Part shown: piece by piece, positions 1,411 to 18,540 of the stretch
Position numbering within the stretch: position 1 is the first letter of the stretch
Layout of the letters: each line of letters begins with the position of its first letter
NCBI GenBank assembly: GCA_048267045.1
Contig: JBLWYG010000002.1
Coordinates: 2,977 to 66,976, forward strand
DNA: 64,000 nucleotides
Reading direction: 5' to 3'
DNA from: Roseovarius sp.
GTDB lineage: Bacteria; Pseudomonadota; Alphaproteobacteria; Rhodobacterales; Rhodobacteraceae
Made by a program: the position numbers and the translations under genes
Notes under the pieces: model-generated
Database searches by the model: none
The model's input: the letters and a program-made list of their open reading frames with translations, nothing else
What the model was told of the DNA's origin: nothing

Positions 1411-2244
1411 TCACCGCACCCGCGACAAGATCGCAAGCGCGGCGCTGTGCTGCATCGGCCCCGCCGCCGCTACGATGCGCCCCCCGGCAGCGGCGGGCCC
1501 GCCCTGCCAATCGGTGACGATGCCGCCTGCCGCCTCAATCACCGCGATGGGCGCGCAGATGTCATAGGCGTTCAATCCGGCCTCGACCACCAGATCGACC
1601 TGCCCCATGGCAAGCAGTGCGTACGCATAGCAATCGCACCCATAACGCACGATTCGCGCGTGGCCCGCGATCTCGGCGAAGGCCGCGCCTTCGGCGGGCG
1701 TGCCGACGGCGGGGAAGGTCGTCATCACCGTTGCGGCGTCCAGCGCACGATCGCCGCATGTCTTGAGGGACCGCCGCCCCATCGGGCCGGTCATATCCGC
1801 CTGCCCAAGCCCCCCGACGAATCGCTCACCGATGTAGGGCTGGTCGATGATGCCATAAACCGGCCCCTGCACATCGACAGCTGCGATCAGCACGCCCCAT
1901 GTCGGCGTACCGGCGATGAACCCGCGCGTGCCGTCGATCGGATCCAGCACCCAGGTCAATCCACTGGTGCCGGCGCTGGGGCCGAACTCTTCGCCCAGGA
2001 TACTGTCATCGGGGCGGCGCTCAGCCAGAATATCGCGCATTGCGCGCTCTGCCGCGCGGTCGGCGGCCGTTACCGGATCGAACCATCCTTCGCTGAGGGC
2101 GCCGGGTAAGAACTTGTTCTCGATCGCCACCGCGCCCGCGCGGAAATAGGGCAAGATCGCTACCCGTGCGGCATCGGCCAGAAGGTGGGCGACCTTGATA
2201 ATGTCGTCCGCCTCGTCTGCGCGAAGACTGTCGGAGTAGGTCAT
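1411..2244 (-). CDS. hisN: Inositol monophosphatase family, HisN-like histidinol-phosphate phosphatase
   Basis: DPVTAADRAAE, GEEFG, WVLDPIDGTRGF, CDCYAY, DWQG motifs. Confidence 0.75.
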   Translation of the reverse strand: MTYSDSLRADEADDIIKVAHLLADAARVAILPYFRAGAVAIENKFLPGALSEGWFDPVTAADRAAERAMRDILAERRPDDSILGEEFGPSAGTSGLTWVLDPIDGTRGFIAGTPTWGVLIAAVDVQGPVYGIIDQPYIGERFVGGLGQADMTGPMGRRSLKTCGDRALDAATVMTTFPAVGTPAEGAAFAEIAGHARIVRYGCDCYAYALLAMGQVDLVVEAGLNAYDICAPIAVIEAAGGIVTDWQGGPAAAGGRIVAAAGPMQHSAALAILSRVR

Positions 2245-2280
2245 GGCGAAAGGCCCTCGCAGGTCACTATGCCACGTGAC

Positions 2281-2413
2281 TAAAGCGTTTCGGCGTCAAG
2301 GTAAAACAGGAGTTCGCCCCAAAGCGGGCGAACTCCGATCTAAGGTCGGGCATTTCAGTGGAGACCCCGCGATTCAGGTTTTTCCCGATACGTTCACTGG
2401 GCCGAACGCTTTG
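2281..2413. mobile_element. Diverged MITE-like element related to the 44198-44315 element
   Basis: Starts TAAAGCGTTTCG (same as one MITE end); 2371-2384 is a 14/14 reverse-complement match to 44211-44224; internal perfect 11-bp hairpin 2309-2336. Confidence 0.55.
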
Positions 2414-2502
2414 TTTCAGAGCTGACCGCTTCAGAGTCGCACAGCGCTGATCCCAACCTGCCGACACAGGTCCGATGCAAGATATCGGGCCGGTCCGGTG
2501 TG

Positions 2503-2886
2503 TCAGGCCACGTCGCTCAGCACGCGGGCCAGATCGAACAGGCGGCGTCGCTGGTTTTCGGGAATTGCGTAATACGACCGCACCAGATCCAGCGCTTCCT
2601 TGTCACCCAGAATGTCGGCCGGGCTGCCCTTGGCGGCTGGGGCGTCCGTCGTAGCGGCGCCCTGCGCAGTGTCCATTCCCTCAAAGAAAAACGCAACGTT
2701 GACGCCCATCGCCGCCGCGATATCCCACAGTCGCGAGGCGCTGACGCGGTTCGCACCTGTTTCGTATTTCTGGATCTGCTGGAATTTTATACCGACGCTT
2801 TCAGCCAACTGCTGCTGCGTCATTCCGGCCAGCCATCGCCGGTGCCTGATGCGTTTACCGACATGGATGTCGACGAGATGGGGCAT
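2503..2886 (-). CDS. XRE/HTH_3 transcriptional regulator (conserved alphaproteobacterial type)
   Basis: VDIHVGKRIRHRR...QQQLAESVGIKFQQIQKYETGANRVSASRL. Confidence 0.92.
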   Translation of the reverse strand: MPHLVDIHVGKRIRHRRWLAGMTQQQLAESVGIKFQQIQKYETGANRVSASRLWDIAAAMGVNVAFFFEGMDTAQGAATTDAPAAKGSPADILGDKEALDLVRSYYAIPENQRRRLFDLARVLSDVA

Positions 2887-3191
2887 ATTTTATTCCTTTT
2901 GATGGCGGCTCATACCATGCGATGCAGGGCCCGCAAATTTGCGCGCTACCTTGCACGTCCGCCTTAACTACACTCGAAAACGTGGGGCAAAGATTAACAC
3001 CGGCGCGGAGTTTTTCAACAATTATTGCATCTGTTGGGATTTTTGTTCGCATATTATTCAATTTAAGCGGGAGTGCAGGGTAAAATTCCCGACATGTCGC
3101 GGTCGAGTTTGACAGCGCTTGGCACCTTGGGCAGGGTGCGTAACGGCAGCGCACAAGCCGCCGCTCTGTCGCTTGAAAGGCTCCGAAAACC

Positions 3192-4157
3192 ATGACGATG
3201 CGCGCCCTCCGGCTGACCTCGCACGACGCGCCTCCGGCGCTGGCGGACGTCCCCCTGCCCCAGCCCGCCCCCGGGCAGATCCGGCTGCGCATCCATGCAT
3301 GCGGGTTGAACTTTGCCGATCTGCTGATGATCAAGGGAAGCTATCAGGACACGCCTGCCCTGCCCTTTACGCTGGGGATGGAGGTTGCCGGAATCGTGGA
3401 TGCGCTTGGCGACGGTGTTGTCGGCCCTGCGATCGGATCGCGCGTGGCGGTCTTTGGCGGCCAGGGCGGGCTGGCCGAATATGGCTGTTTTGACGTTGAC
3501 CGCGCGCTGCCCCTGCCCGACAGCCTGACATTCGAGGCCGCGGCCGCGTTTCAGATCGCCTATGGCACCTCGCATCTGGCGCTGGAGCATCGCGCACGGC
3601 TGAAGGCAGGCGAAACGCTGCTGGTTCTGGGTGCGGCGGGCGGTGTGGGCCTGACGGCGGTGGAGATCGGCAAGGCGATGGGCGCGCGCGTGATCGCCTG
3701 CGCGCGCGGCGCGGTCAAGCTGGAGGCGGCGCGCGCCGCCGGGGCCGACCATCTGATCGACGCCGAAACCGATGATATCCGCAAAATGATCAAGGATCTG
3801 GGCGGTGCCGACGTGGTCTATGATCCGGTCGGCGGGGACCAGTTTACCGCCGCATTCCGTGCCTGCCGTCCCGAGGCGCGCATTCTGACCATCGGATTTG
3901 CCAGCGGCGACGTGCCGCAGATCCCGGCCAATCACTTGCTGGTCAAGAACCTGACCGTCATGGGCCTCTATTGGGGCGGCTACCTGAGCTTTGCCCCCGA
4001 TGTGCTGACCGGATCGCTGCGCACCCTGCTGGACTGGGCCGCCGAGGCCCGGATCGCGCCGCGCGCGCAACACACTTATCCCTTGGACCGCGCGATGGAC
4101 GGACTGGACCTGCTGCGCACCCGAAAGTCGACCGGCAAGGTCGTCATCGCGGTCTGA
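3192..4157 (+). CDS. NADPH:quinone oxidoreductase (zinc-free MDR family)
   Basis: GLNFADLL, PFTLGME, LVLGAAGGVG, GFASG, GKVV motifs. Confidence 0.92.
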   Translation: MTMRALRLTSHDAPPALADVPLPQPAPGQIRLRIHACGLNFADLLMIKGSYQDTPALPFTLGMEVAGIVDALGDGVVGPAIGSRVAVFGGQGGLAEYGCFDVDRALPLPDSLTFEAAAAFQIAYGTSHLALEHRARLKAGETLLVLGAAGGVGLTAVEIGKAMGARVIACARGAVKLEAARAAGADHLIDAETDDIRKMIKDLGGADVVYDPVGGDQFTAAFRACRPEARILTIGFASGDVPQIPANHLLVKNLTVMGLYWGGYLSFAPDVLTGSLRTLLDWAAEARIAPRAQHTYPLDRAMDGLDLLRTRKSTGKVVIAV

Positions 4158-4349
4158 TCGCGGTCCTATCTTGGCCTCTCGGTCACCCCTCTCGCGGCTT
4201 TCTTTCGGGCAGCTTGCATCTCCGGGCCGGGCAACCTTGCAAATGATACGCAAAACCCTGACCGAAAAGCCTTGAAATACCCCACTCGCCCCACGATATT
4301 AAGCCAAAGCTCCAAATCGGGGTCTTGGCACATCAACTCGGAGGTACAG

Positions 4350-5069
4350 ATGGCTGAATACAACACAATCCGGACGGCGGGCGGCACCCGCACCGCCCAG
4401 ATTGACGAGGGCCTGCGCGCCCACATGAACAAGGTCTACAGCACCATGTCCGTCGGCATGCTGCTAACGTTCCTGACCGCTTGGGCCGTCGGCAACAATG
4501 CCTACATGATGGAAAACCTGTTCACCGGTATGATGCGCTGGGTCGTCATGTTCGCGCCGCTGATCATGGTCTTTGCCTTCGGCGCCGTCATCAACAAACT
4601 GTCGGCCGCCGCTGCGCAGCTGTTCTTCTATGCGTTTGCGGCCGTAATGGGCGTATCCATCAGCTATATCTTTGTCATCTTCACCGACTTCTCGATCGCG
4701 CAGGTTTTCCTGACGACGTCGATCGCCTTCGCCGGTCTGTCCCTTTGGGGCTATACCACCAAGAAGGACATCTCGGGCTGGGGCAGCTTCCTGATCATGG
4801 GTGTGATCGGCCTGATCGTGGCGTCGATCGTGAACATCTTCCTCGGCTCTCCGGCGATCATGTTTGCAATCTCGATCATCGGTGTTCTGATTTTCGCGGG
4901 CCTGACGGCCTATGACACCCAGTCGATCAAGAACGAGTATCTGGCTCATGCGCAACATGGCGACAGCGAATGGCTGGGCAAGTCGGCGATCATGGGCGCT
5001 CTGCGCCTCTATCTCGACTTCATCAACATGTTCATGTTTCTGCTGCAACTGATGGGAAACAGAGAGTAA
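4350..5069 (+). CDS. Bax inhibitor-1/YccA family membrane protein
   Basis: IDEGLRAHMNKVY, GYTTKKDISGWG, AYDTQSIK, GALRLYLDFINMF; GGAGG RBS. Confidence 0.95.
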   Translation: MAEYNTIRTAGGTRTAQIDEGLRAHMNKVYSTMSVGMLLTFLTAWAVGNNAYMMENLFTGMMRWVVMFAPLIMVFAFGAVINKLSAAAAQLFFYAFAAVMGVSISYIFVIFTDFSIAQVFLTTSIAFAGLSLWGYTTKKDISGWGSFLIMGVIGLIVASIVNIFLGSPAIMFAISIIGVLIFAGLTAYDTQSIKNEYLAHAQHGDSEWLGKSAIMGALRLYLDFINMFMFLLQLMGNRE

Positions 5070-6114: not shown

Positions 6115-6442
6115 CACGACCTCGCGCCGCCTGTCATGGCCAGACTTGGCACTCATGCTTTGATCCCGCTCACGTGCATTTCCCGCACGGCCCCGCGGCA
6201 CGCGCCCGGGGAATGATATCGCCCCGGCATCCGGTGCACCACAGATAAACCTGCGCAAACGGGGGTTGCCAAGCATGGCGGGATCAAACAACCTCAAGTT
6301 ATTGCTGCACGCGCCGTGCCCCTTTCATAAATGGCGCATACCTTGGAGGGACTGATCCAGGACACGCCCGCGCTGCGCAGGCCGCAAAAAGGCGAACGTC
6401 CCTGCCCATACCCGGCAGGAAATTCAACAGGAGGAAAACACC

Positions 6443-7972
6443 ATGTCCAACGAAGCCAAAGTACCGCGCCGACCATCGCTGTTCCTCGCGCTCGTTCCCG
6501 TTGTCCTGACGCTGATGCTGCTTGCGCTGCAATTGTTCTATTTCAGCGATTTCACACCGCAGATCCCTCTTGCCATCGGGCTGGCGATCACGGGCGTTCT
6601 GGGCATCTATCTGGGGCATGACTGGAGCGGCCTGGAAGAGGGCGTGTTCCACGTCATCACCGTCTCGCTGCCATCGGTGTCGGTGCTGATCGTGGTCGGC
6701 ATGATCATCGGTGTCTGGATCGCCAGCGGTACGGTGCCGACATTGATCTATTACGGTCTGATCATCCTGTCGCCGCAGATCTTTCTTGCGGCGGCCATGA
6801 TCATGTGCGCAATCGTGTCGCTGTCGCTGGGCACATCATGGGGCACGGTCGGCACGGTGGGTCTGGCACTGATGGGGATCGGTGCAGGCTTTGACGTGCC
6901 GATGTACTGGACCGCGGGGGCGGTAGTGTCGGGCGCGTTCTTCGGTGACAAGATCTCGCCGCTGTCGGACACGACAAACCTTGCGCCCGCTGTTACCGGA
7001 CAGGACCTGTTTGCCCATATCCGCAACATGATGCCGACGACCGTGCCCGCCATGCTGATCGCATTGGCAATCTATTTCTGGGCCGGCTTCAGCCTGATGG
7101 AAAGCGCCGACGGGGCCGCGTTCGAGCGAATTGACGCGATTACCACCGCACTTCAGGCAAACTTCAGCATTTCTCCCTGGTTGCTGGTGCCCGCGCTGCT
7201 GGTCATCGTGCTTGCCGTCATGCAACAACCGCCCATCCCGTCGCTGTTCGCCGGTGTGCTGATCGGCGGCCTGGTGGCGATCATTGCGCAGGGCGTAACG
7301 CTGCACGAGGTGTTCCAGTTCGCGAACAGTGGCTACAAGATTGATACAGGCGTCAGCGAAATCGACGGTCTGCTGAACAGAGGCGGCATTCAGTCGATGA
7401 TGTGGACGATCTCGCTGATTCTGATCGCGCTGGGCTTTGGCGGCGTGCTGGAGCGTACGGGCTGCCTGCAAACCATCATCGCGGCAATCCTGACCAAGGT
7501 GCACAGCTTTGGCGGCGTGCAGACAGCCGCCATCGGCACCTCGGTTGCGACAAATCTGGTGGCCGGCGATCCCTATCTGTCGATTGCCCTGCCCGGCCGC
7601 ATGTATTCGCCGGTCTATCGCGGCATGGGATATTCAACGCTGAACCTGTCACGCGCGACCGAAGAAGGCGGCACGCTAATGTCGCCGCTCATCCCATGGA
7701 ATGCTGGGGGCGCCTTCGTCATCACTGCACTCGGGCTGGGCATATCGTCGGGGAACCTGGAAAACCTGCTGTATATTCCGCTGGCCTTTGCCTGCTGGAT
7801 CACGCCGGTAATCGGGATCATTTACGCTTGGACCGGGTTATTCTCGCCGCGCGCCGGTGAGGCCGAGCGCAAGGACTGGGTGAATAACGACCGTGAAATC
7901 ACGGATATGAGCGACTATGGCTATGAGCACCCGTTGACCTCCGACCAGGCCGAGCCGACCCCTGCCGAGTAG
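6443..7972 (+). CDS. nhaC: NhaC-family Na+/H+ antiporter / solute transporter
   Basis: GTVPTLIYYG, GTSWGTVGTVG, GAFFGDKISPLSDTTNLA, LNRGGIQSM, PLIPWN; GGAGG RBS. Confidence 0.9.
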   Translation: MSNEAKVPRRPSLFLALVPVVLTLMLLALQLFYFSDFTPQIPLAIGLAITGVLGIYLGHDWSGLEEGVFHVITVSLPSVSVLIVVGMIIGVWIASGTVPTLIYYGLIILSPQIFLAAAMIMCAIVSLSLGTSWGTVGTVGLALMGIGAGFDVPMYWTAGAVVSGAFFGDKISPLSDTTNLAPAVTGQDLFAHIRNMMPTTVPAMLIALAIYFWAGFSLMESADGAAFERIDAITTALQANFSISPWLLVPALLVIVLAVMQQPPIPSLFAGVLIGGLVAIIAQGVTLHEVFQFANSGYKIDTGVSEIDGLLNRGGIQSMMWTISLILIALGFGGVLERTGCLQTIIAAILTKVHSFGGVQTAAIGTSVATNLVAGDPYLSIALPGRMYSPVYRGMGYSTLNLSRATEEGGTLMSPLIPWNAGGAFVITALGLGISSGNLENLLYIPLAFACWITPVIGIIYAWTGLFSPRAGEAERKDWVNNDREITDMSDYGYEHPLTSDQAEPTPAE

Positions 7973-7999
7973 GCCAGAAACCCGACAGCCGCGCCTTAG

Positions 8000-8029
8000 C
8001 CCGTCCTGTTTACGATCAGACAGGGCGGG
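8000..8029. terminator. Stem-loop between convergent nhaC and histidine kinase genes
   Basis: 12-bp stem CCCGTCCTGTTT/AGACAGGGCGGG (2 G-U pairs). Confidence 0.6.
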
Positions 8030-8079
8030 TGAATGCAGAAGTGCGGTATCTTTGTATTCTGTGGAGGCGCCGATAGCGA

Positions 8080-9414
8080 TCACGCCCGTTCCGGCCCCGG
8101 CATCACGAATTCCGCCATGACCCCGCCGCGCTGCCCCGGCGCGGGCGAGTGCAGCGCCAGCGCGCCGCCAGCGCCCTCCGCGATGGCCTTGGCGATCGAC
8201 AGACCCAGCCCGCTGCCGCGCGACAGCGATTGCCCGCGCTCGAACCGCGCGGTGAGCTGCGCCAAAATCTCGGGCGGAACGGGCAGGCCGTCATTGGCGA
8301 CGCGCAGAAAGCCGCTGCGCAGCATGACCTGCACCGGCGCATCCTCCCTGCCGTGGCGCAGCGCATTCTCGATCAGGTTGCGGGCAAGGATGGCAAAGGC
8401 GTCTGGGTCGATATCGGACAGAACCGGGTCATCCGGTATGTCGCGCATGATGCGCCCGGCGCCTGCCGCGCGCTGAAAATCGGACAACACCATATCCAGC
8501 ACCGGGCGCATGTCCGAAGCGGTATCGCGCCGCAGCCGCCCCCCTTCGGCGCGGGCCAGTTGCATCAGCTTTTCCGATAGCCGGGTAAGGCGTTTGAGCG
8601 ATGTCTCGATCTCGGCGGCCCGGTCGCTGGTGACAGGGTCGGTGGTCTCGCTGAGAAGCCTCTGCGTCTGGGCCAGCGCCGCCGCGACCGGGGTGCGAAG
8701 CTCATGTGCAGCGTTGGCGGTGAAGCTGCGCTCGGCCTCCAACGTGCGGCTCAGCCGCTCAAACAGCTGATTGACGGCCTCGGCCACAGGCGTGATTTCG
8801 GCAGGCAGATCACCCTGCCGGACCGGCGACAGATCGCGCGCGCCCCGGCTGGACAGGTCGGCGCTGAACCGGCGCACGGGGCGCAGGCTGTAGCGGACAA
8901 TCGCGTAGACGCCCAGCAGGCTAAGCGGAATGATCGCGATCAGCGGCAGCGCCAATGCCATCAACGCCTCGCGCGCGACGGCCGCCCGGTGGCCCAGCGG
9001 CTCGGCCACGGCGATCGTGATCGTGCCCTGCAGCGCCGCATCGTAATACAGCCGATCCGTGGCTGTCTGGCGAAATCCCATCCCGTCGAAGGGTGGAAAA
9101 TCGGCATCCTCGGCGGCGTGCGACCGCATGAGGACACGGCCCTGATCGTCGCGCACCAGATAGGTGAAGTACTCATCATGCCGACGCAAGGTGGCGATGC
9201 GCTGGCCGAGCGCTTCGGCGTCACTATCCAGAATTTCCAGCACCGCCAGCGGCAGGATGCGCTGCGCCGTCTCCTCCAGCGCGGAATCGAACACCCGGTC
9301 CATCTCTGCCCGCAGCTGCGTGGCCGTGGCCCATGCAACCGCCAGCCAAAGCGCTGTCAGCCCCAGCCCCAGCCCCAGCGCCAGCCGCCCTTGCAGCGAT
9401 CGCGGCCCCCTCAT
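8080..9414 (-). CDS. Sensor histidine kinase (QseC-like, 2 TM, HAMP, HisKA, HATPase)
   Basis: FTANAAHELRTP H-box, NLIENALRHG N-box, GSGLGLSI G-box. Confidence 0.95.
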   Translation of the reverse strand: MRGPRSLQGRLALGLGLGLTALWLAVAWATATQLRAEMDRVFDSALEETAQRILPLAVLEILDSDAEALGQRIATLRRHDEYFTYLVRDDQGRVLMRSHAAEDADFPPFDGMGFRQTATDRLYYDAALQGTITIAVAEPLGHRAAVAREALMALALPLIAIIPLSLLGVYAIVRYSLRPVRRFSADLSSRGARDLSPVRQGDLPAEITPVAEAVNQLFERLSRTLEAERSFTANAAHELRTPVAAALAQTQRLLSETTDPVTSDRAAEIETSLKRLTRLSEKLMQLARAEGGRLRRDTASDMRPVLDMVLSDFQRAAGAGRIMRDIPDDPVLSDIDPDAFAILARNLIENALRHGREDAPVQVMLRSGFLRVANDGLPVPPEILAQLTARFERGQSLSRGSGLGLSIAKAIAEGAGGALALHSPAPGQRGGVMAEFVMPGPERA

Positions 9415-10070
9415 GCGGCCCCCAGCCGATAGCCCATGCCGCGCACCGTTTCGATCCGGTCATGGCCCAGCTTCTTGCGCAGGCGGCTGACATGCACCTC
9501 GATCGTGTTGCTGTCGATCTCTGCCTCGAAGGAATAGAGCCGCTCCTCCAGCTGCGCCTTGGAAAACAGCTGACCGGGCCGCTGCAGAAGCGCCTCCAGC
9601 AGCACCCATTCGCGCGCGGTAAGCGCCACCGGCCGGCCATCCCGCAGGACCGAGCGTGCGGCCAGATCAATCTCCAGATCCCGAAGCGTGATCAACGGAT
9701 TGGGATTTCCCGAATAGCGCCGCGCCACCGACCCGACCCGCGCCGACAATTCGGCCAGATCGAAGGGCTTGATCATGTAATCGTCCGCGCCCGCATTCAG
9801 CCCCTCGATCCGATCGCTGATCTGGTCCATCGCGGTCAGGATGATCACCGGCGTGACATCGCCGCGCGTGCGCAGCGCGCGCAGGAACGGCTGGCCGCGC
9901 CCGTCGGGCAGCATCAGGTCCAGCAGGATCAGATCATAGTTGGCCACGTCCAGAAATTCGCGCGCCGCATCCAGCCGCCCGGCCCAGTCCACAGAATGGC
10001 CGTCGGCGGCGATCTGGTCATGCACCGCCCCCGCCAGCACCGTATCGTCCTCGATCAGCAATACACGCAT
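9411..10070 (-). CDS. OmpR-family response regulator (QseB-like)
   Basis: LLIEDD, LLDLMLPDG, GADDYMIKPF, IETVRGMGYRL; 4-nt overlap with the kinase. Confidence 0.95.
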   Translation of the reverse strand: MRVLLIEDDTVLAGAVHDQIAADGHSVDWAGRLDAAREFLDVANYDLILLDLMLPDGRGQPFLRALRTRGDVTPVIILTAMDQISDRIEGLNAGADDYMIKPFDLAELSARVGSVARRYSGNPNPLITLRDLEIDLAARSVLRDGRPVALTAREWVLLEALLQRPGQLFSKAQLEERLYSFEAEIDSNTIEVHVSRLRKKLGHDRIETVRGMGYRLGAA

Positions 10071-10118
10071 CGGCCCGCCCCTCCTGGTTCGGTTTCTCCC
10101 TCTCTATCATTGACCAAG

Positions 10119-10167
10119 CTGACGCGCACCTGAAGCGGAACACAGCCGCGCTTCAGGTGACAGTCAG
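10119..10167. promoter_or_regulatory. Head-to-head pair of 11-bp-period CTGAC-N6-CTGAA boxes (probable site for the adjacent OmpR-type regulator)
   Basis: CTGAC(10119)-GCGCAC-CTGAA, 17-nt gap, TTCAG-GTGACA-GTCAG; same geometry recurs at 11211-11259. Confidence 0.7.
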
Positions 10168-10217
10168 CATCATGCGCGACAAGGGCACATCCCCGCCAAG
10201 ACAGAGGAGATGGGAAA

Positions 10218-10793
10218 ATGAAACACTATCTGATGACGGCAACTTTTCTAGCCGCGCTCACCGGCGCCAGTGCTGCCTTTGCCAGCGATGACTGCCACGC
10301 ACCGAAAGCCGACTGGCAATCGCAGGACGCGGTCGCGGCGATGGCGGCAAAACAGGGTTGGAGCGACTCAAGGATCGAGACCGATGACGGCTGCTACGAG
10401 ATCGACGCTCGCGATGCGCAAGGTCGCCAGGTCGAGGCAAAGGTTCACCCCGCGACGCTGGAGATCATCAAGCTGAAATACGGCGATGGCGACTGCCGTG
10501 TGCCTATGGAAGACTGGCAGCCTCGCGAGGCCGTACAGAAAATGGCCGAAGCCGAAGGCTGGACCGTGCGCCGCATCAAGACCGACGACGGTTGTTACGA
10601 GATCAAGGGCCGCGATGCCAAAGGTCGCGAGATCGAAGTCAAGGTCGATCCGGCCACGCTGGAAATGGTCGAGTTCGAATATGATGAGGACGATCAAGCC
10701 AACCGGACCGACATGGCCCCGGCTCTGGCGCCAAGCAAGGCCGCGCCGGCCAACGGGCTGTTCACCCCCGGCACGACACCCGTCGTCGAATGA
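10218..10793 (+). CDS. Secreted protein with two tandem PepSY domains
   Basis: Signal peptide; two repeats C..P..DWQ..AV..MA...GW....I.TDDGCYEI..RDA.GR..E.KV.PATLE. Confidence 0.88.
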   Translation: MKHYLMTATFLAALTGASAAFASDDCHAPKADWQSQDAVAAMAAKQGWSDSRIETDDGCYEIDARDAQGRQVEAKVHPATLEIIKLKYGDGDCRVPMEDWQPREAVQKMAEAEGWTVRRIKTDDGCYEIKGRDAKGREIEVKVDPATLEMVEFEYDEDDQANRTDMAPALAPSKAAPANGLFTPGTTPVVE

Positions 10794-11210
10794 TACCCGG
10801 CTGGAGCGTGAAGGACGTGTCTGAACGGCCGCACGCAAAAAGAACCAAGTGCGGGAAAGACTGCCCCACGCAGCGGCGCGTCATCAACTGGCGCGCCGCG
10901 ATGGCATGCAAAACGCGGCCCGGCCAGCCACCAAAGGCTGCAATCGGCGCCGGTGCCCGGCGCTCGTCCGCAAGACTGCGAAGCGCCTGACATCCGCAAG
11001 ATCACGCAGGCTTTTGCGGGAACGTCCGTGTTTACGGACCATGATACGGATAGCTGCCGATCCCGGCGCGCGCCCCGTCACTGACCCGGCGCATGACCTG
11101 CATCGCCGCGGCATCGGGGCGATCACATCTCGCGCCTTTGTGAGCGTTTCAACGCTGGCCAGACGGGCCGGATCAAACCGCCCCGTCACTGTTTGCAAGC
11201 CCCGATGAAC

Positions 11211-11259
11211 CTGACGCCAGGCTGAAGCAGTTTTCCCTAACCCGTCAGGCAGGCATCAG
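11211..11259. promoter_or_regulatory. Second CTGAC-N6-CTGAA box pair, upstream of the DUF2271 operon
   Basis: CTGAC-GCCAGG-CTGAA, 17-nt gap, GTCAG-GCAGGC-ATCAG; spacing identical to 10119-10167. Confidence 0.68.
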
Positions 11260-11306
11260 CGGCACCCGCGAAACAGGTCACGAAACACTCAACCTGGAGA
11301 ATCGCC

Positions 11307-11771
11307 ATGAAGACCCTGCTTTCGGCACTTGCCTTGACCACCGCCCTGACCGCGCCCGCGCTGGCCCGGCCCGTGACCCTGACCACCAACATGACGCAGT
11401 ATGGCGGCGACGGCGCCTACCTCGCGATCTACGTCACCGACGCACAGGGCACCTATATGGGCAGTCTGTGGATGGCCGGCGGGAAATCCAAGTATTACCA
11501 GCACCTCAGCGACTGGTATCGCGCCACCGGCGGCAATCCGGCACAGATCGACGGCATCACCGGCGCCAGCGTCGGCGCGGGTCGGCAATTGAAAATCACC
11601 CTCGATCTGGCCGATGCCTTGTTCGATGCCGGCTACGTGCTGCACATCGACAGCGCGGTCGAGGAAATGCGCGACAGCCCGTCCGAAGTGGTGGTTCCTC
11701 TGACGAGTGCGGGCGCAGGCCAGCCGGTCGCAGGGCGCCGCTATATCCGCGATTTCACCTACGACATGTAA
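11307..11771 (+). CDS. DUF2271-type periplasmic protein with a flavinylation motif
   Basis: Signal peptide; YGGDGAYLAIY, LSDWYR, IDGITGASV (DxxTGAS, the ApbE target motif). Confidence 0.85.
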   Translation: MKTLLSALALTTALTAPALARPVTLTTNMTQYGGDGAYLAIYVTDAQGTYMGSLWMAGGKSKYYQHLSDWYRATGGNPAQIDGITGASVGAGRQLKITLDLADALFDAGYVLHIDSAVEEMRDSPSEVVVPLTSAGAGQPVAGRRYIRDFTYDM

Positions 11772-11789
11772 GCTGAAAGGAGCCACGCC

Positions 11790-13997
11790 ATGCTGCGCGC
11801 GCTGCATAAATTCCCCGGCCTGATTGCCGCGTTGCTGATCGCCGTCCTGACGCTAAGTGGCGCGGTGCTAAGCGTTTTTCCCACGCTGGAGGCGGTGCAA
11901 GCTCCAGCTCAGTCCGAAGCTGATCTTACAGTCGCCACGCTCGCAGATCGCATCGTCGACGCCTATCCCGGCGTCGAGCAGATCCGCCGTGCGCCGTCAG
12001 GGCAGATCACCGCCTTTTATTTTGCGGATGGCCGCCCGGGTTCGGTCATCATAGACCCGGCAACCGGGACCAGTGTGGCCGAGTACAAGCCGTCCGCATT
12101 CAAGCGCTGGATGACCAACCTGCACCGTTCGCTGTTTCTGGACGATGCCGGACGCTGGGCCGCAGCAGTGGGGGCGGCATCACTTCTGGCTCTGTCAATT
12201 TCAGGCCTGATGCTGACCGTGCGCCGCATTGGCGGCTGGCGACGTTTTTTCGCGCGCCTGCGCGGGCCGGCCGTGGCCCGACTGCATGTCGAGATTGCTC
12301 GGCTGAGCGTGGCCGGCCTGCTGTTGTCATCGTTGACCGCGCTCTACATGACTGCCAGCACCTTCGGCATGATCCCTGAAGGCAGCGCCCCGGATTTCCC
12401 CAAGGGCGTCAGCGGCCAGACCGGCGCGGCGCCTGCCGCAATGCCGCTGCTGCAAGCCACGCCGGCGGCGGCGCTGCGCGAGTTGACCTTTCCATACCCC
12501 GGCGATCCCACCGATGTCTTCACGCTCAAGACCGCTGGCGGTGCGGGCTACGTGGATCAGGGCAATGGCGCGACGCTGATCTGGACCGAGGCAGGGATTT
12601 GGCCCCGGCTGACCGAAACCATCTACATGTTGCACACCGGTCAAGGCATGGCCTGGCTGGGGCTTGTCCTTGGGCTGATGGCGCTTGGCGTGCCGGTCAT
12701 GGCCGCCAGTGGCGTCTTGCTCTGGCTGCAATCGCACCGGGCGCGGCCACGGATCAGGGGCAATGTGGCCGCCGCGCAGGCCGACACGATCCTGCTGGTG
12801 GGTAGCGAAGGCGGCAGCACCTGGGGCTTTGCCGCGACGCTGCACGCCGCGCTGAGCCGCGCGGACCACAAGGTTCACACCGCAACGATGTCACAGTTTG
12901 CGCCTCTGCGTTACAAGCGGGCCGAACGGGTGATCGTTCTCGCGGCCACTTACGGCGATGGCGTTGCCCCGGCCTCGGCCAAGGGGTTTCTGGAACGGCT
13001 GGCCGCCCTGCCGGAGCCTCCGGACATGCCTCTGGCGGTGCTGGGGTTCGGTGACAGGCAGTTCCCGAAATTCTGCGCCTATGCTGCCGATGCGGCCCGC
13101 CTGGCCGAAGAAAAAGGCTGGACGCCGCTGATGCCGATGGCAAATGTTGACCGCCAGTCGCCGCAGGAATTCGCCCGCTGGGGGCGTGAACTGGGCGCCG
13201 TACTGGGCCATCCGCTGGAGTTGTCGCACAGTCCCGCGATACCGCGCAGCCACAGGCTAACCCTGATCTGGCGGCGCGACTATGGCGCCGACATGCAGAG
13301 CCCGGCCGCGATCCTGCGCTTTGCCCTGCCCACGCCCGGGCTGATGGCCCGGCTGGCGGGGCGCGGTCTGGGGCGATTTGCCCCCGGCGAGCTGCTGGGC
13401 ATCCTGCCCGACGGATCTCCCGTGCCGCGGTTCTATTCCCTGGCTTCCGGGCGCGGCGACGGTTTTCTGGAAATCTGCGTCAGCCGCCATCCCGGCGGGC
13501 TTTGCTCGGGCCACTTACTGCGGCTGCGGCCCGGTGACCATGTAGAGGGCTTCATCCGCCGCAATAGCGGTTTCAAGCCGGCACGGGGAAGCAGGCCGGT
13601 CATTCTGATCGGCGCGGGCACCGGAATCGGCCCGCTCGCCGGCTTTGCGCGCAGCAATGCCGCACGCCGACCCATGCATCTCTATTTCGGGGCACGGCAT
13701 CCGGGCAGCGATCTGTTCTACGGACCCGAAATGCAGGACTGGCAGGCGGATGGACGCCTTGCCTCGGTCACCACGGCTTTTTCCCGGATGGGCACGCGCG
13801 CCCATGTGCAGGACGCGCTGCGCAATGACGGCGAACACATTGCCCGCCTGATCGCGGGCGGCGCGCAGGTGCTGGTCTGTGGCGGGCGCGACATGGCGGC
13901 GGGCGTTGCAGATGCGCTGGCTGACATTCTGGCGCCGCAGGGGCTGACACCTGCCTTGCTGACAGCTGAGGGACGTTATGCCGAAGACACCTATTGA
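11790..13997 (+). CDS. PepSY-TM (His/heme) + flavodoxin + FNR fusion, transmembrane oxidoreductase
   Basis: TM His motifs NLHRSL, RLHVEI, MLHTG; flavodoxin GSEGGSTWGFA, ATYGDG, GFGDRQFPKFC; FNR PRFYSLAS, GLCSG, IGAGTGIGP, LYFGAR, terminal EDTY. Confidence 0.9.
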   Translation: MLRALHKFPGLIAALLIAVLTLSGAVLSVFPTLEAVQAPAQSEADLTVATLADRIVDAYPGVEQIRRAPSGQITAFYFADGRPGSVIIDPATGTSVAEYKPSAFKRWMTNLHRSLFLDDAGRWAAAVGAASLLALSISGLMLTVRRIGGWRRFFARLRGPAVARLHVEIARLSVAGLLLSSLTALYMTASTFGMIPEGSAPDFPKGVSGQTGAAPAAMPLLQATPAAALRELTFPYPGDPTDVFTLKTAGGAGYVDQGNGATLIWTEAGIWPRLTETIYMLHTGQGMAWLGLVLGLMALGVPVMAASGVLLWLQSHRARPRIRGNVAAAQADTILLVGSEGGSTWGFAATLHAALSRADHKVHTATMSQFAPLRYKRAERVIVLAATYGDGVAPASAKGFLERLAALPEPPDMPLAVLGFGDRQFPKFCAYAADAARLAEEKGWTPLMPMANVDRQSPQEFARWGRELGAVLGHPLELSHSPAIPRSHRLTLIWRRDYGADMQSPAAILRFALPTPGLMARLAGRGLGRFAPGELLGILPDGSPVPRFYSLASGRGDGFLEICVSRHPGGLCSGHLLRLRPGDHVEGFIRRNSGFKPARGSRPVILIGAGTGIGPLAGFARSNAARRPMHLYFGARHPGSDLFYGPEMQDWQADGRLASVTTAFSRMGTRAHVQDALRNDGEHIARLIAGGAQVLVCGGRDMAAGVADALADILAPQGLTPALLTAEGRYAEDTY

Positions 13998-14970
13998 TCC
14001 TGTGCGCCACGCGCTGAATGGCCCCACAATGGGCACCCGCTGGTCGGCGACTTTTCAGGCGCCGTCGATAGCGGATGTGGCGGCGGTCGAGGCGGCACTG
14101 GCCGAGACGGTGGATCTGGTGGACCGCCAGATGTCGACATGGACGCCCGCCAGCGACCTGATGCGGATCAACGCGGCCCCCGCGGGGCAATGGCTAGCGG
14201 TGCCGGCGGAGATGAAGGAAGTTCTGGCGATGGGGCTGGAGATCGGGCAAATGTCGGACGGCGCATTTGACATCGGAATGGGCGATGTCGTTACAGCCTG
14301 GGGCTTTGGCCCGCGTCAAGTGGACACAGAAGCGATCCGCGCCGAATTGGGCAAGCCCCGAACCCCGGCGCATCACTGCCTGGAGTTGGACCCCGAAGCG
14401 CCAAGGCTTCGCAAACATGGCGCCATCGCATTGGATCTGTCGGGCATCGCCAAGGGCTATGCCGTGGACCGCATGCTGGCCGCGCTTCGCCGTTTCGGAA
14501 TCGAAAACGCGCTTGTCGGCCTCGACGGCGAGATGCGCGCGTGCGGCGTGCGCCCCGATGCAAACGCGTGGACTATTGCCATCGAACGGCCCGACCGCGA
14601 GGCCCGTGCGCCACATTCCATCATCGAACTGGCCGATTGCGCCGTGGCAACCTCGGGCGATTACCGGCACTGGATCGAGGTCGGCCACAGGCGACTGTCG
14701 CATACCATGGACCCTGTTCGCCGCTGTCCGCTGGCGGACTCGCCCGCCTCCGTGACTGTTCTGGCCCGGACCTGCATGCAGGCCGATGCGTGGGCAACCG
14801 CGCTGATGGTCAAAGGGGGCTTGGAGGGGGCGGCAATGGCCCGTAGGCTGAACATGAACGCTCTTTTTCTGCTGCGGGACCGGCAGCGTTCAAGCGAGAT
14901 ACGGACCGGGCCACTGTTCACCGCAGCACCCCGGATTCAAGATCAACCCACCGAGGGTTTGCAAGAATGA
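13978..14970 (+). CDS. apbE: FAD:protein FMN transferase ApbE
   Basis: TMGT, DLSGIAKGYAVD, VATSGDYR, SHTMDP, ADAWATALMV. Confidence 0.93.
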   Translation: MPKTPIDPVRHALNGPTMGTRWSATFQAPSIADVAAVEAALAETVDLVDRQMSTWTPASDLMRINAAPAGQWLAVPAEMKEVLAMGLEIGQMSDGAFDIGMGDVVTAWGFGPRQVDTEAIRAELGKPRTPAHHCLELDPEAPRLRKHGAIALDLSGIAKGYAVDRMLAALRRFGIENALVGLDGEMRACGVRPDANAWTIAIERPDREARAPHSIIELADCAVATSGDYRHWIEVGHRRLSHTMDPVRRCPLADSPASVTVLARTCMQADAWATALMVKGGLEGAAMARRLNMNALFLLRDRQRSSEIRTGPLFTAAPRIQDQPTEGLQE

Positions 14971-16817
14971 TGACGTCGAGTTTTCAGGATCGTTTGAATG
15001 TCGTTTTGGTGGCAATTGCGCTGGCCGGGCTTGCCTTGGGCCTGTCGTTGTGGGCTGCAGGACAGCCCGGATTGGCCGATATCGCGTGGGTCGCCGGTGT
15101 CGTCCCGGTACTGGCCGCGCTGGCAATCGAAATTGTCCGCAGTCTGGCGCGGGGCGATGTCGGGCTGGACATCGTCGCCGCCCTGTCGATGACCGCAGCG
15201 CTGATCTTTGGCGAAACGCTGGCGGCGGCGGTCGTCGCCCTGATGTATTCCGGCGGCACGTTCCTCGAAAGTTTTGCCGAGCGCCGCGCCCGCCGCGAGA
15301 TGAGCGATCTTTTGTCGCGCGTGCCGCGATCCGCAACGCGGCATGAAAACGGCGCATTGGTCGAGGTCGATCTGGACGACATCGCGCCGGGCGATCTGCT
15401 GTTGATCAGGCAGGGCGACATCGCCCCGGTAGACGGCACCGTGGAGAGCGATGGCGCAGTCCTGAACCAGTCCGCCCTGACCGGCGAGGCGATGCCGGCC
15501 CGCCTTTCGCGCGGCGCGGGCGTGATGAGCGGTTCGACCAATGCCGGCGATGCGTTTGATCTGTGCGCCACCCACCGGGCCGCCGACAGCACCTATGCCG
15601 GGATCGTCCGGCTGGTCGAGGCGGCACAGAAATCCAAGGCGCCGATGGTGCGGCTGGCCGACCGCTATTCTCTGGTTTTCCTCGTGGTGACGATAGTGAT
15701 CGCCACCGCCGCGTGGTGGTTCAGCGGCGATCCCATTCGCGCGGTCGCCGTGCTGGTCGTGGCCACGCCCTGCCCGTTGATCCTGGCCGTTCCGGTCGCG
15801 CTGGTGGCCGGCATGTCGCGCGCCGCGCATTACGGCGTGCTGATCAAGGGGGCCGGCCCGCTGGAGGCGATGGCACGGATCACGACGCTGATCCTGGACA
15901 AGACCGGCACGCTGACCGACGGGCGCCCAAAGATCGTGGCCATCGAGCCCCAATCGGATCTGACCGAAGACGAAATACTGCTCTTTGCCGCCGCGCTTGA
16001 TCAGGCGTCCAAACATCCCATCGCCCAGGCCATCGTGGCTTCCGCGCAGGAGCGGGACTTGAACCTTCCCGTTCCGGGCGATCCGGTCGAGACGCCGGGC
16101 GCGGGCATCACCGGGATGGTGGATGGCCACCGCGTCGCCGTGGGTGGCGCGGATTTTGTCATCCGGCAGGTCGGCTCTGGCCACATAGATCATCCCGCCA
16201 GGACCGAGGCCGAGGTGACGGTGGCCGTTGCCGTCGATGGCCGCCTGGTCGGCTACTTGGTCATGGCGGACATGCTGCGCAGCGGCACGGCCGGTTTTCT
16301 GGCCGGGCTGCGCCGGATTGGACTTGGACGCATCCTGCTGGCCACGGGCGACCGGCAGGCGGTTGCGGATGGCGTCACCGAAGGGCTGGATCTGGACCTT
16401 GTCCACGCGCAGATGACACCGGATCAAAAGGTGCAGCTGGTCCTGTCCGAGCGCGAGCGCGGCCCGGTGATGATGGTCGGCGACGGCGTGAACGACGCCC
16501 CGGCGCTGGCGGCTGCCGATGTGGGAGTGGCGATGGGCGCGCGCGGAACGGCGGCGCCCGCCGAGGCAGCGGATGTGGTCCTGCTGGTCGACCGGCTGGA
16601 CCGCCTGCTGCCGGGGCTGGAGGTAGCACGCGGCGCGCGGCGGATCGCGCTGGAAAGCGTGATCGCGGGTATCGGGCTATCCATCATCGGCATGATCGCC
16701 GCGGCCCTGGGGTATCTCAGCCCGGTTGAGGGCGCGCTCCTGCAAGAGGTGATCGACGTCGCGGTGATCCTGAACGCGCTGCGGGCGCTGCGGATCGTCC
16801 CGGCGGACGCAAATTGA
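14967..16817 (+). CDS. Heavy-metal P1B-type ATPase, P1B-5-like signature, no hemerythrin domain
   Basis: LTGEA, ATPCPLILAVP, DKTGTLT, SKHPIA, VGDGVNDAP, QEVID; ATGA overlap with apbE. Confidence 0.88.
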   Translation: MMTSSFQDRLNVVLVAIALAGLALGLSLWAAGQPGLADIAWVAGVVPVLAALAIEIVRSLARGDVGLDIVAALSMTAALIFGETLAAAVVALMYSGGTFLESFAERRARREMSDLLSRVPRSATRHENGALVEVDLDDIAPGDLLLIRQGDIAPVDGTVESDGAVLNQSALTGEAMPARLSRGAGVMSGSTNAGDAFDLCATHRAADSTYAGIVRLVEAAQKSKAPMVRLADRYSLVFLVVTIVIATAAWWFSGDPIRAVAVLVVATPCPLILAVPVALVAGMSRAAHYGVLIKGAGPLEAMARITTLILDKTGTLTDGRPKIVAIEPQSDLTEDEILLFAAALDQASKHPIAQAIVASAQERDLNLPVPGDPVETPGAGITGMVDGHRVAVGGADFVIRQVGSGHIDHPARTEAEVTVAVAVDGRLVGYLVMADMLRSGTAGFLAGLRRIGLGRILLATGDRQAVADGVTEGLDLDLVHAQMTPDQKVQLVLSERERGPVMMVGDGVNDAPALAAADVGVAMGARGTAAPAEAADVVLLVDRLDRLLPGLEVARGARRIALESVIAGIGLSIIGMIAAALGYLSPVEGALLQEVIDVAVILNALRALRIVPADAN

Positions 16818-17093: not shown

Positions 17094-18416
17094 TCAAAGC
17101 CCGTATTGTTCGCGCGCGTAGTTGCCAAGACCCACGGCGTCCAACTTGCCCAGAGGAGCGAGGAACGTCACCTGTATCACGCCCGGCGCGCGTCCGATTT
17201 CAATCGCGCCATTCACCGTCGCCCGGTTGCGAATCTCGGCCACGGTCACGTCCAGCAGCCTGGCAGCCCGCGCCAGGCCGTTTTCGATGGCGTCATTGAG
17301 GTTTGCGGCTGTTCCGATGACGGAAATCGGCGCCAGGGGCTCAATGTCGGTCACGCCCCACCTGGCCGCCAGACGTTCGCCCTTGGCCTTTTCCTCGGCG
17401 CTGAATGGCTTGGCCATCGGCGGCAGATCCTCTACCAGCGGGAACAGCACCGGCCCATCCAGCGGATAATCCTTTACCACCTCGACCTGCAAGGTCACGC
17501 TGCCCGACACGTCCATCGTATGACCGGCAATCTCGCCATCGCCCTGCCCCGCGTGCATGTCGCCCATATAGACACCCGCGCCCTTCACCTTGACCGGGCA
17601 GACCAGAATGGCCCCGGCGCGCACCGCGTCGATATCCATGTGGCCGTCGGTCTTGTGCTCGGCCAGTTGCTCGGCAGTGATGCCGTAGTCATGCGGCGCC
17701 CCCACAAGGAACGCGCCGAAATCGCCCGCATTGTGGCTGTCAGGCATCGGCATCGACGGACAGGTCCCCAACTGTCCCATGAAGGGGCGCATGCGCACCA
17801 GCGTGCCCGGCATGTCCGAGGGCGCATAGTTCAGGATGGAATGCTGGCGGCTGGCGTCCGGCAGCGCCGAATAGTGGTCGGCCTGCATCGCAATCGTCTC
17901 GGCCGCCGCTTTGGACAGGGTCAGGCCGACGCTGTGGGTGTCGTCAAAGGTGACAGTATAGCCATGCACGATCTCGAACGGGGTCACAGCATTGCCGCAG
18001 GCATCACATTTCACGGACTGCCCGCCGACCCCCTCGATATGCGTCTCTGGCCAGACCGTGTCGCACACCGGGCAGCGCGCGGCGACGTAAGGATCGCCCA
18101 GACAGAACCCCTCGGGCGAGCTGTCATGGCCCGACGCCGTGGCGATGGAGGTCACGGTAATGTCGCGGATGCGTATGGCAACGCCGTCGCCCACCTCGGC
18201 CCCGTCGACATGGACCGGCTGCGTTACCTCATGCCCGCCGCGCAGGCGCGGCGTGATCATCGGCCCCCAGCATCCCGGCGCGGTATTGGCGATGATGGTG
18301 CCACCATCCTCGACCGGGCCCAGCATTGGGGCGTTCGGGTCCAGAACGCTGTTGGTGAATTCATCCACGACAACGCTGCGGCGCGCGCTATGATCTGTCT
18401 TGCTACCGTCCGCCAT
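17094..18416 (-). CDS. Acetamidase/formamidase (FmdA/AmdA) family protein with a Cys4 insertion
   Basis: [34 protein letters not shown]; CPVC...CDAC insert; GGAGG RBS before ATG 18416. Confidence 0.85.
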
Positions 18417-18540
18417 GATATCCTCCGCCATGTTGCTATTTCCTTATTCAAACTTAGTTTACAATTCCCGGCACGCAAGCCGCGTTTGTGATCGCAATCG
18501 CGACCAGCGGAAAGCACCTGGGCCAACGAAGGCAGATGAT

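Follow-up and report, generated by a model that had tools for sequence, protein, structure and literature searches.

A P1B-5-like ATPase gene joined to a predicted ApbE/DUF2271/PepSY_TM redox operon in Roseovarius and related Alphaproteobacteria

Gene clusters in which the flavin transferase ApbE is encoded together with PepSY-like proteins have been catalogued in large numbers. A survey described 3220 PepSY-like flavinylation clusters, with DUF2271 in 2833 of them, an NAD-binding domain on the PepSY-like protein in 1077, and a VIT1 transporter in 167 (Meheust et al. 2021, eLife 10:e66878, PMC8238504). Flavinylation of DUF2271 by its ApbE at a [S/T]GA[S/T] motif was shown for the Amantichitinum pair only (PMC8238504). 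Flavinylated PepSY-like clusters are present in thousands of Gram-negative genomes, and their purpose has been inferred only, as iron assimilation. Here, we describe such a cluster in a stretch of 64,000 nucleotides from a marine Roseovarius sp. (contig JBLWYG010000002.1; the window), in which the redox genes are joined to a gene for a P1B-5-like (Nia-type) P-type ATPase. Like the published systems, the window encodes ApbE, a DUF2271 protein with a [S/T]GA[S/T] motif, and a PepSY_TM protein fused to an NAD-binding domain. It differs from them in the pump gene, which is translationally coupled to apbE, in the presence of a PepSY protein with a two-component sensor, and in the location of the relatives' module on conjugative plasmids. 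We favor, with moderate confidence, the reading that the predicted gene products form one sensor-controlled envelope redox and metal-efflux unit, handling most likely iron, with nickel or cobalt possible. The features of the locus are as follows.

8080-9414, minus strand: sensor histidine kinase, QseC/PmrB type, with a periplasmic 2CSK_N domain (Pfam 2CSK_N, HAMP, HisKA, HATPase_c)
9411-10070, minus strand: OmpR/PmrA-like response regulator (Pfam Response_reg and Trans_reg_C)
10119-10167, no strand: operator-like box 1 in the divergent promoter region (sequence reading)
10218-10793, plus strand: secreted protein with two PepSY_2 domains (Pfam PepSY_2, two stretches, E 4e-52)
11211-11259, no strand: operator-like box 2, same geometry as box 1 (sequence reading)
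11307-11771, plus strand: DUF2271 periplasmic protein, predicted carrier of flavin mononucleotide (FMN) (PF10029, E 5e-35)
11790-13997, plus strand: fusion of PepSY_TM, Flavodoxin_1, and NAD_binding_1, 735 residues (Pfam)
13978-14970, plus strand: ApbE, predicted flavin adenine dinucleotide (FAD):protein FMN transferase (PF02424, E 7e-75, 252 bits against a cut-off of 25.6)
14967-16817, plus strand: P1B-5-like (Nia-type) P-type ATPase, 616 residues (Pfam E1-E2_ATPase and Hydrolase; TIGR01525)
17094-18431, minus strand: convergent formamidase-family gene, unrelated, next after the ATPase gene (annotation of neighbors)

An earlier note on this DNA had named the genes of the locus, and open reading frame (ORF) listing and a Pfam scan recovered all of them at the same positions. 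The kinase and regulator genes, which overlap by 4 nt, are indeed divergent from the double-PepSY gene, with a 147-nt spacer between the regulator and PepSY genes. The overlaps that the note had seen between the last three genes were also borne out: 20 nt are common to the fusion gene and apbE, and the apbE stop and ATPase start share 4 nt (ATGA). A ribosome-binding site, GAGGG, is placed within apbE, 11 nt 5' of the ATPase start. The DUF2271 and fusion genes are separated by an 18-nt gap without overlap. No terminator-like site was found between DUF2271 and the ATPase start, and the count of such sites in the region was not above that of shuffled sequence.

The ATPase matches TIGR01525 at 499 bits against a cut-off of 346, and the P-type catalytic motifs DKTGT, TGE, and GDGxNDxP can be read directly. 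A TPCP motif lies in transmembrane helix 4 (TM4), before DKTGT, within the segment ATPCPLILAVP at residues 266-276; PCP is among the published signatures of P1B subgroups (PMC4932525). The TPCP and DKTGT motifs, together with Q593, E594, and D597, are invariant in 83/83 homologues. The nearest structures are those of CopA, ZntA, and a Cd/Co ATPase. In genome searches the protein was 29-41% identical to other P1B ATPases, and 55% identical over 604 residues to an 809-residue ATPase encoded on Sinorhizobium meliloti pSymA (located by tblastn and ORF listing), which shares the ATPCPLILAVP and GALLQExID segments and carries a C-terminal haemerythrin domain. From this domain and the PCP motif, we take the pSymA protein to be SMa1163/Nia. 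Together, the TPCP signature and the 55% identity uphold the P1B-5 assignment made in the note.

Nia is the only characterized P1B-5 pump and transports Ni2+ and Fe2+ (PMC4932525; PMC9388753). The two proteins are alike in having TPCP in TM4, GALLQExID in the last helix, and no N-terminal HMA domain, and they differ at the C-terminus, where the window protein ends 8 residues past the last helix and Pfam lists no haemerythrin domain (no PF01814 match). A haemerythrin-like domain is found only in some P1B-5 members and is not strictly defining. Since the window ATPase is without one, any redox or iron sensing must come from elsewhere, perhaps from the two-component system. For P1B-5 ATPases, of all P1B subgroups the least understood, the coupling offers a physiological setting and a possible regulator.

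The redox core corresponds to a known type. As the note had stated, the ApbE/DUF2271/PepSY_TM-NAD core has been described bioinformatically, including a tested DUF2271 flavinylation (PMC8238504), and the window holds the features by which PepSY-like systems were defined there, namely ApbE, PepSY_TM, and a [S/T]GA[S/T] substrate. The flavinylation motif that the note had pointed out in DUF2271 reads IDGITGAS; its GITGAS is invariant in 55/55 orthologues, and TGAS occupies residues 85-88, with Ser88 as the predicted flavinylated residue. That definition also asks for a signal peptide or lipidation site on one or more of the target genes; by eye, DUF2271 has a typical Sec-type signal (MKTLLSALALTTALTAPALA/RP) without a twin arginine. 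The only second [ST]GA[ST] motif in the cluster is a TGAS tetrapeptide inside the predicted signal peptide of the PepSY_2 protein (residues 14-17; 10257-10268; LAALTGASAAFA), which is absent from the relatives' signal peptides and is probably due to chance. The flavodoxin loop GSEGGSTWG was considered as a flavinylation site and rejected, as it does not fit [ST]GA[ST].

In the fusion protein, PepSY_TM (PF03929, E 1e-34) covers residues 4-314, followed by Flavodoxin_1 at residues 336-458 and NAD_binding_1 at residues 606-707. His6, His112, His166, and His282 of the PepSY_TM part are invariant in the 55 orthologues (55/55), while His316 varies; the four invariant transmembrane histidines are predicted to suit two bis-His b-haems. 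FoxB of Pseudomonas aeruginosa (PDB 7ABW), which reduces ferric siderophores and holds two haems, belongs to the same fold family and likewise has four conserved transmembrane histidines, but is without a fused reductase and without a flavinylated partner; it was not found in a phmmer search with the fusion protein, the sequence similarity being too low. Pfam listed no FAD_binding_1 match for the fusion protein. A FAD domain is assigned because PDB structures of CysJ and cytochrome P450 reductase (CPR) match residues 546-719, and because the motifs RFYS(L), GAGTGIGP, and a C-terminal Tyr can be read. By these sequence features, the protein has the diflavin layout of CysJ/CPR, in which an FMN domain precedes those that bind FAD and NAD(P)H. 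The electron path proposed in the note, from reduced nicotinamide adenine dinucleotide (phosphate), NAD(P)H, through FAD, FMN, and haem to the FMN of DUF2271, fits these domains and would be their natural reading, with the histidines, the reductase, and GITGAS all invariant in orthologues; the direction of flow is one that we infer.

To examine how often the pump and the core are joined, we surveyed both sides. On the ATPase side, the best 80 homologues in contigs from one genome per species (70-86% identical) were inspected. ApbE was encoded within 300 nt upstream of the ATPase in 39/80, or 39/73 of those with enough upstream sequence (7/80 loci were too short), with the gene order as in the window, and four more loci had parts of the module nearby. 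The uncoupled ATPases had no other recurrent neighbor: among 36 flanking proteins and 47 Pfam families, none was common to more than two. In L048, which has a two-component system, PepSY, cytochrome b561, and the ATPase (numbers of this form denote surveyed loci), the ATPase was considered as a member of the regulon without the flavin core; this was rejected, because a terminator-like hairpin precedes the ATPase. Two further loci are irregular: L045 has about 2.6 kb inserted between the fusion gene and apbE (6431-9015), and in L033 the fusion gene and apbE are reduced to short remnants before an intact ATPase gene (2638-3019).

On the DUF2271 side, an evenly drawn sample of 401 Rhodobacteraceae genomes was used. 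DUF2271 was present in 64 and the ATPase in 63, with both in 33, the ATPase only in 30, DUF2271 only in 31, and neither in 307 (odds ratio 10.9, Fisher p 4e-14, uncorrected for relatedness). The ATPase directly followed ApbE in 17 of the 64 DUF2271 genomes, about 3.2 kb past DUF2271 and on the same strand, and three more cases were split by contig ends. The co-localization survey proposed in the note thus found the linkage to be recurrent in Rhodobacteraceae and related Hyphomicrobiales, and absent beyond them (0/44 and 0/17, given in full below). By its distribution in these genomes, the coupling belongs to a single lineage of NAD(P)H-fused modules (Rhodobacterales and several Hyphomicrobiales) and not to DUF2271 systems generally. 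The note knew of no description of the coupling, and we likewise found none: the word ATPase is absent from the main text of the 2021 survey and of its 2024 follow-up, and no searchable paper mentions the link. The link is real and recurrent, confined to one lineage, and undescribed as far as the searchable literature shows.

The P1B-5-like ATPase is one of several transporters found beside the core. VIT1 (233 residues in the relatives) follows the ATPase in 29/39 coupled loci, and another 10 genomes of the Rhodobacteraceae sample have VIT1 on its own next to the core. A P1B-4 ATPase (SPC ... HEGGT) is encoded inside the core cluster in L094 and beside the core in L091. In all, about half of the Rhodobacteraceae cores carry a transporter of the P-type ATPase or MbfA/VIT1 family. 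A review distinguishes four classes of bacterial iron efflux (PMC7762939). MbfA/VIT1 is one of them, and the P-type ATPases are another, as the P1B-4 pumps, among which Nia is listed. The families of the known Fe2+ exporters PfeT, FrvA, and CtpD (P1B-4) and MbfA (VIT1) (PMC7762939) are thus the same as those adjoining the core, P1B-4 in L094 and L091 and VIT1 in many loci, with a Nia-type pump in the window; they differ in that the known pumps are each encoded by a single gene controlled by Fur, PerR, or Irr, whereas here they stand in an operon with a transmembrane reductase, under a two-component system. Meheust et al. took VIT1 to be a route of uptake, whereas all transporters associated with the core here belong to export families. 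L094, the closest relative of the window core, has its P1B-4 gene between the sensor module and DUF2271 (2078-5018), and a two-HMA CopA with a MerR/CueR-type regulator after ApbE (10727-12706), forming a metal island.

The related cassettes are longer than that of the window, and some are mobile. Upstream, the relatives encode either PepSY_2 proteins of a single domain, one or two in number, or a secreted protein that is acidic and rich in Asp, and many also have a cytochrome b561 or a Ferric_reduct-FAD-NAD protein. The full cassette is present on conjugative MOBP/MPF_T plasmids, all of a single replicon cluster (rep_cluster_579), of Roseovarius indicus (pRIdsm_03 of the cultured strain DSM 26383) and Pseudosulfitobacter pseudonitzschiae, in the order two-component system, PepSY, ferric-reductase-like protein, PepSY, DUF2271, fusion, ApbE, ATPase, and VIT1. 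The ATPase and fusion proteins are identical in L064 (Thioclava atlantica, Rhodobacterales) and L065 (Ciceribacter selenitireducens, Hyphomicrobiales), a set of loci that also takes in L081 and L082. Identical proteins across two orders, together with the location on conjugative plasmids, indicate recent horizontal transfer of the whole operon. Recurrence of the ATPase link on roseobacter plasmids points to export of a metal, probably iron, and not to iron uptake.

The junction in the window has a separate history. In the fusion-protein tree, the window grouped with three cores without a P1B-5 ATPase (L085, L094, and L097; 100/98 support), and this group was sister to all others. In the ATPase tree, the window grouped with L001 (Roseovarius dicentrarchi, 86% identical) and L002 with a support of 100, both of which are without the module. 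At the nucleotide level, synteny with L001 and with L002 sets in at the ATPase start (14969 and 14982) and extends downstream to 28149; upstream of the ATPase start, there was no nucleotide match to either. As one gain in the window lineage is more parsimonious than two losses per side, these patterns indicate that the junction arose independently of the plasmid cassette. The ATPase and core were therefore joined at least twice, and of the arguments for a functional link this one carries the most weight.

At the other end of the locus, the sensor module can be compared with DbfQRS of Vibrio cholerae, where DbfQ binds the sensor DbfS, and with BqsRS and PA2658/PA2659 of P. aeruginosa, where extracellular Fe(II) is the signal to which BqsS responds (PMC12714742). 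This type of module is defined by a small secreted protein with PepSY domains only, encoded within four genes of a histidine kinase and a response regulator. The window has such a protein beside its kinase and OmpR-type regulator, and its divergent layout is a published variant. The window differs in the two PepSY_2 domains of its protein, which has two cysteines per domain and a C-terminal NGLF tail, and in an apparent redox and efflux regulon. Because of the precedent of DbfQ/PA2658, a small PepSY protein beside a two-component system, the window's PepSY_2 protein is a probable co-sensor of the kinase. The best NCBIfam matches of the kinase were QseC and PmrB, both below their cut-offs, and that of the regulator was PmrA (217 bits, below cut-off); across related modules, the kinase is 50-74% and the regulator 71-89% identical.

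Box 1 and box 2, as read directly, have the form CTGACG-N5-CTGAAG, N15, and then an inverted pair. A box of the CTGACG-N5-CTGAAG form is present in the intergenic region between the regulator and PepSY genes in 44/52 related loci. Box 2 ends 48 nt upstream of DUF2271 and is kept upstream of DUF2271 in L085, L094, and L097; the DUF2271 promoter region is 72-74% identical in nucleotides to those of L097 and L094. In the plasmid cassettes, the counterpart of box 2 precedes the small gene that comes before DUF2271. No such box precedes the ATPase, and a search of the window for an Irr ICE box, with up to three mismatches allowed, gave no match. Taken together, these sites suggest that the regulator probably binds both boxes, driving the PepSY gene and the DUF2271 operon.

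The ApbE of the cluster is unusual in its N-terminus. It matches ApbE structures in the PDB (E 2e-54), and an alignment with the crystallized Pseudomonas stutzeri ApbE chain 5mgy pairs residue 11 of the one with residue 11 of the other. It starts 14 residues before the GPTMGT motif, and no signal peptide or lipobox was seen by eye (13978-14040). For most of 54 orthologues, the frame is closed by a stop codon 5-10 codons 5' of the start, and a hydrophobic signal segment in the upstream frame was found in 0/54. DUF2271-linked ApbEs of other proteobacterial classes have no obvious hydrophobic N-terminus either, as judged by eye. The only other ApbE in the genome is of NosX type with a Tat signal (MTNRRRFLAISAAA; contig C42:21253-22611); its gene sits at the end of a nos-like gene cluster. 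Candidate explanations are that DUF2271 may be modified before export, that another enzyme may load it, or that this ApbE may act in the cytoplasm. If the dedicated ApbE is cytoplasmic and DUF2271 is flavinylated before passing through Sec, no FAD supply to the periplasm would be needed. The signal-less ApbE thus raises a testable question, that of the compartment in which a secreted protein is covalently flavinylated.

The unit that we favor would work as follows. The secreted PepSY_2 protein and the PmrA/QseC-like two-component system would act as the sensor, as in DbfQRS/BqsRS, and the regulator would bind both CTGACG-N5-CTGAAG boxes and switch on the PepSY gene and the DUF2271 operon. Electrons from cytoplasmic NAD(P)H would pass to the FAD and FMN of the CysJ-like domains, cross the membrane through two b-haems held by the four PepSY_TM histidines, and reach, as final acceptor, the FMN covalently bound to Ser88 of periplasmic DUF2271. 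The haemerythrin-less P1B-5 ATPase, translationally coupled to apbE, would pump a divalent transition metal out of the cytoplasm. The whole would be an inducible response to envelope metal stress that exports Fe2+, with the periplasmic flavoprotein keeping periplasmic iron in, or returning it to, a soluble reduced state. Iron and export are preferred because the P1B-5, P1B-4, and VIT1 neighbors represent known bacterial Fe2+ exporter classes. Which metal is moved and in which direction, which way the electrons flow, and what the reduction serves are points that we infer.

Several observations weigh against this reading. A P1B ATPase within about 6 kb of DUF2271 was found in 0/44 clusters elsewhere in the phylum and in 0/17 of a class-wide sample, and about half of the Rhodobacteraceae cores have no adjoining exporter gene, so the redox module clearly works without the pump. 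The window itself has no VIT1 gene after the ATPase, and only a weak MbfA-like VIT1 match elsewhere in the genome. Co-transcription of apbE with the ATPase is suggested by their overlap and by the absence of a promoter box or terminator between them. A signal-less ApbE can load a Sec-exported DUF2271 only if the modification precedes export; otherwise, another enzyme is needed. Deletion of nia in S. meliloti CCNWSX0020 did not make the mutant sensitive to Ni, Zn, Cd, Pb, or Cu (PMC4932525). Published readings of related clusters favor iron assimilation, citing Fur repression in Shewanella and Caulobacter and, for some clusters, TonB receptors (PMC8238504), and the reason given here for pairing efflux with periplasmic reduction is our own argument, without precedent. 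A wider version, which we put forward only tentatively, is that in marine and soil Alphaproteobacteria the flavinylated PepSY-like module does not take up iron but supplies the redox arm of a system against iron overload that is mobile and controlled by a sensor. In it, P1B-5, P1B-4, and VIT1 exporters would have been recruited repeatedly (P1B-5 at least twice), the flavoprotein would keep exported iron reduced and soluble, and a cytoplasmic ApbE would add FMN before passage through Sec.

The module could instead be an assimilatory ferric reductase that reduces periplasmic Fe(III) or ferric chelates for uptake, with the ATPase and VIT1 as safety valves or importers, which we consider rather unlikely. 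Meheust et al. argued for assimilation from VIT1 (167 clusters), Fur repression, and TonB receptors (231 clusters), and FoxB and VciB are ferric reductases by precedent (PMC8238504); in a more distant cluster of the same family, L090, a 732-residue upstream ORF may encode a TonB-dependent receptor. However, the characterized relatives of all three transporter types export from the cytoplasm, and the coupled cassettes surveyed have no TonB receptor and no Feo or Ftr-type importer. The module is also under a two-component system with its own box, without a Fur or Irr site, and it travels on conjugative plasmids as resistance traits do. The presence of the pump and reductase in one operon provides a genetic handle on this choice, as a single shared phenotype would tell uptake from detoxification.

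Two further readings concern the chemistry and the adjacency itself. The same architecture might serve a pump for Ni2+, Co2+, or Mn2+, or a chain that makes superoxide from O2, as NOX enzymes do, or that reduces Mn(III/IV) or Cu(II), and this we regard as unlikely. VIT1 proteins can move Mn2+ as well. In many cassettes, a NOX/FRE-like Ferric_reduct-FAD-NAD protein or a cytochrome b561 is encoded too, and the close core L094, set amid copA-cueR and a P1B-4 gene, lies in a general metal-resistance island. Nia also moves Ni2+, and P1B-4 pumps also carry Co2+, Ni2+, and Zn2+ (PMC4932525). Fe2+, however, is the sole substrate common to the precedents of all three exporter types, and the cassettes surveyed have no Ni- or Co-specific regulator and no RND or CDF partner. 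That the adjacency in the window is a by-product of chromosomal rearrangement, with the ATPase independent of the redox module, seems quite improbable to us. It would account for a synteny break exactly at the junction, for the nearest ATPase relatives (L001 and L002) being without the module and the nearest cores (L085, L094, and L097) without the ATPase, and for the hairpin that separates the PepSY and cytochrome b561 genes from the ATPase in L048. It does not sit well with the fixation of the same pairing in a separate, widely transferred cassette, with a start/stop overlap and a ribosome-binding site inside apbE at the window join, or with the genome co-occurrence (odds ratio 10.9), and a second independent junction is easier to explain by selection than by chance.

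The 513-nt gap between the PepSY gene and DUF2271 (10794-11306) contains no recognizable gene and no homologue of the cassette genes. A 119-residue ORF (orf119, 10849-11208) has no relative in about 100 related loci. The gap was considered as a pseudogene of the cytochrome b561 or of the acidic protein, and this was rejected, since no match was better than E 0.1 and the promoter region alone is conserved. Two terminator-like hairpins lie on the minus strand within the gap, at 10851-10931.

Related cassettes encode a secreted protein with long Asp runs (L003:74-436, L028:5932-6306, and L041:5968-6306), for which Pfam gave no match. This protein has a conserved tail, NPAPAGTVAPPQNGLFGNGAPPQVQVN, and the double PepSY_2 protein of the window has a related tail, APANGLFTPGTTPVVE (10700-10793). 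From the shared tail, the window PepSY_2 protein looks like a merger of two cassette genes.

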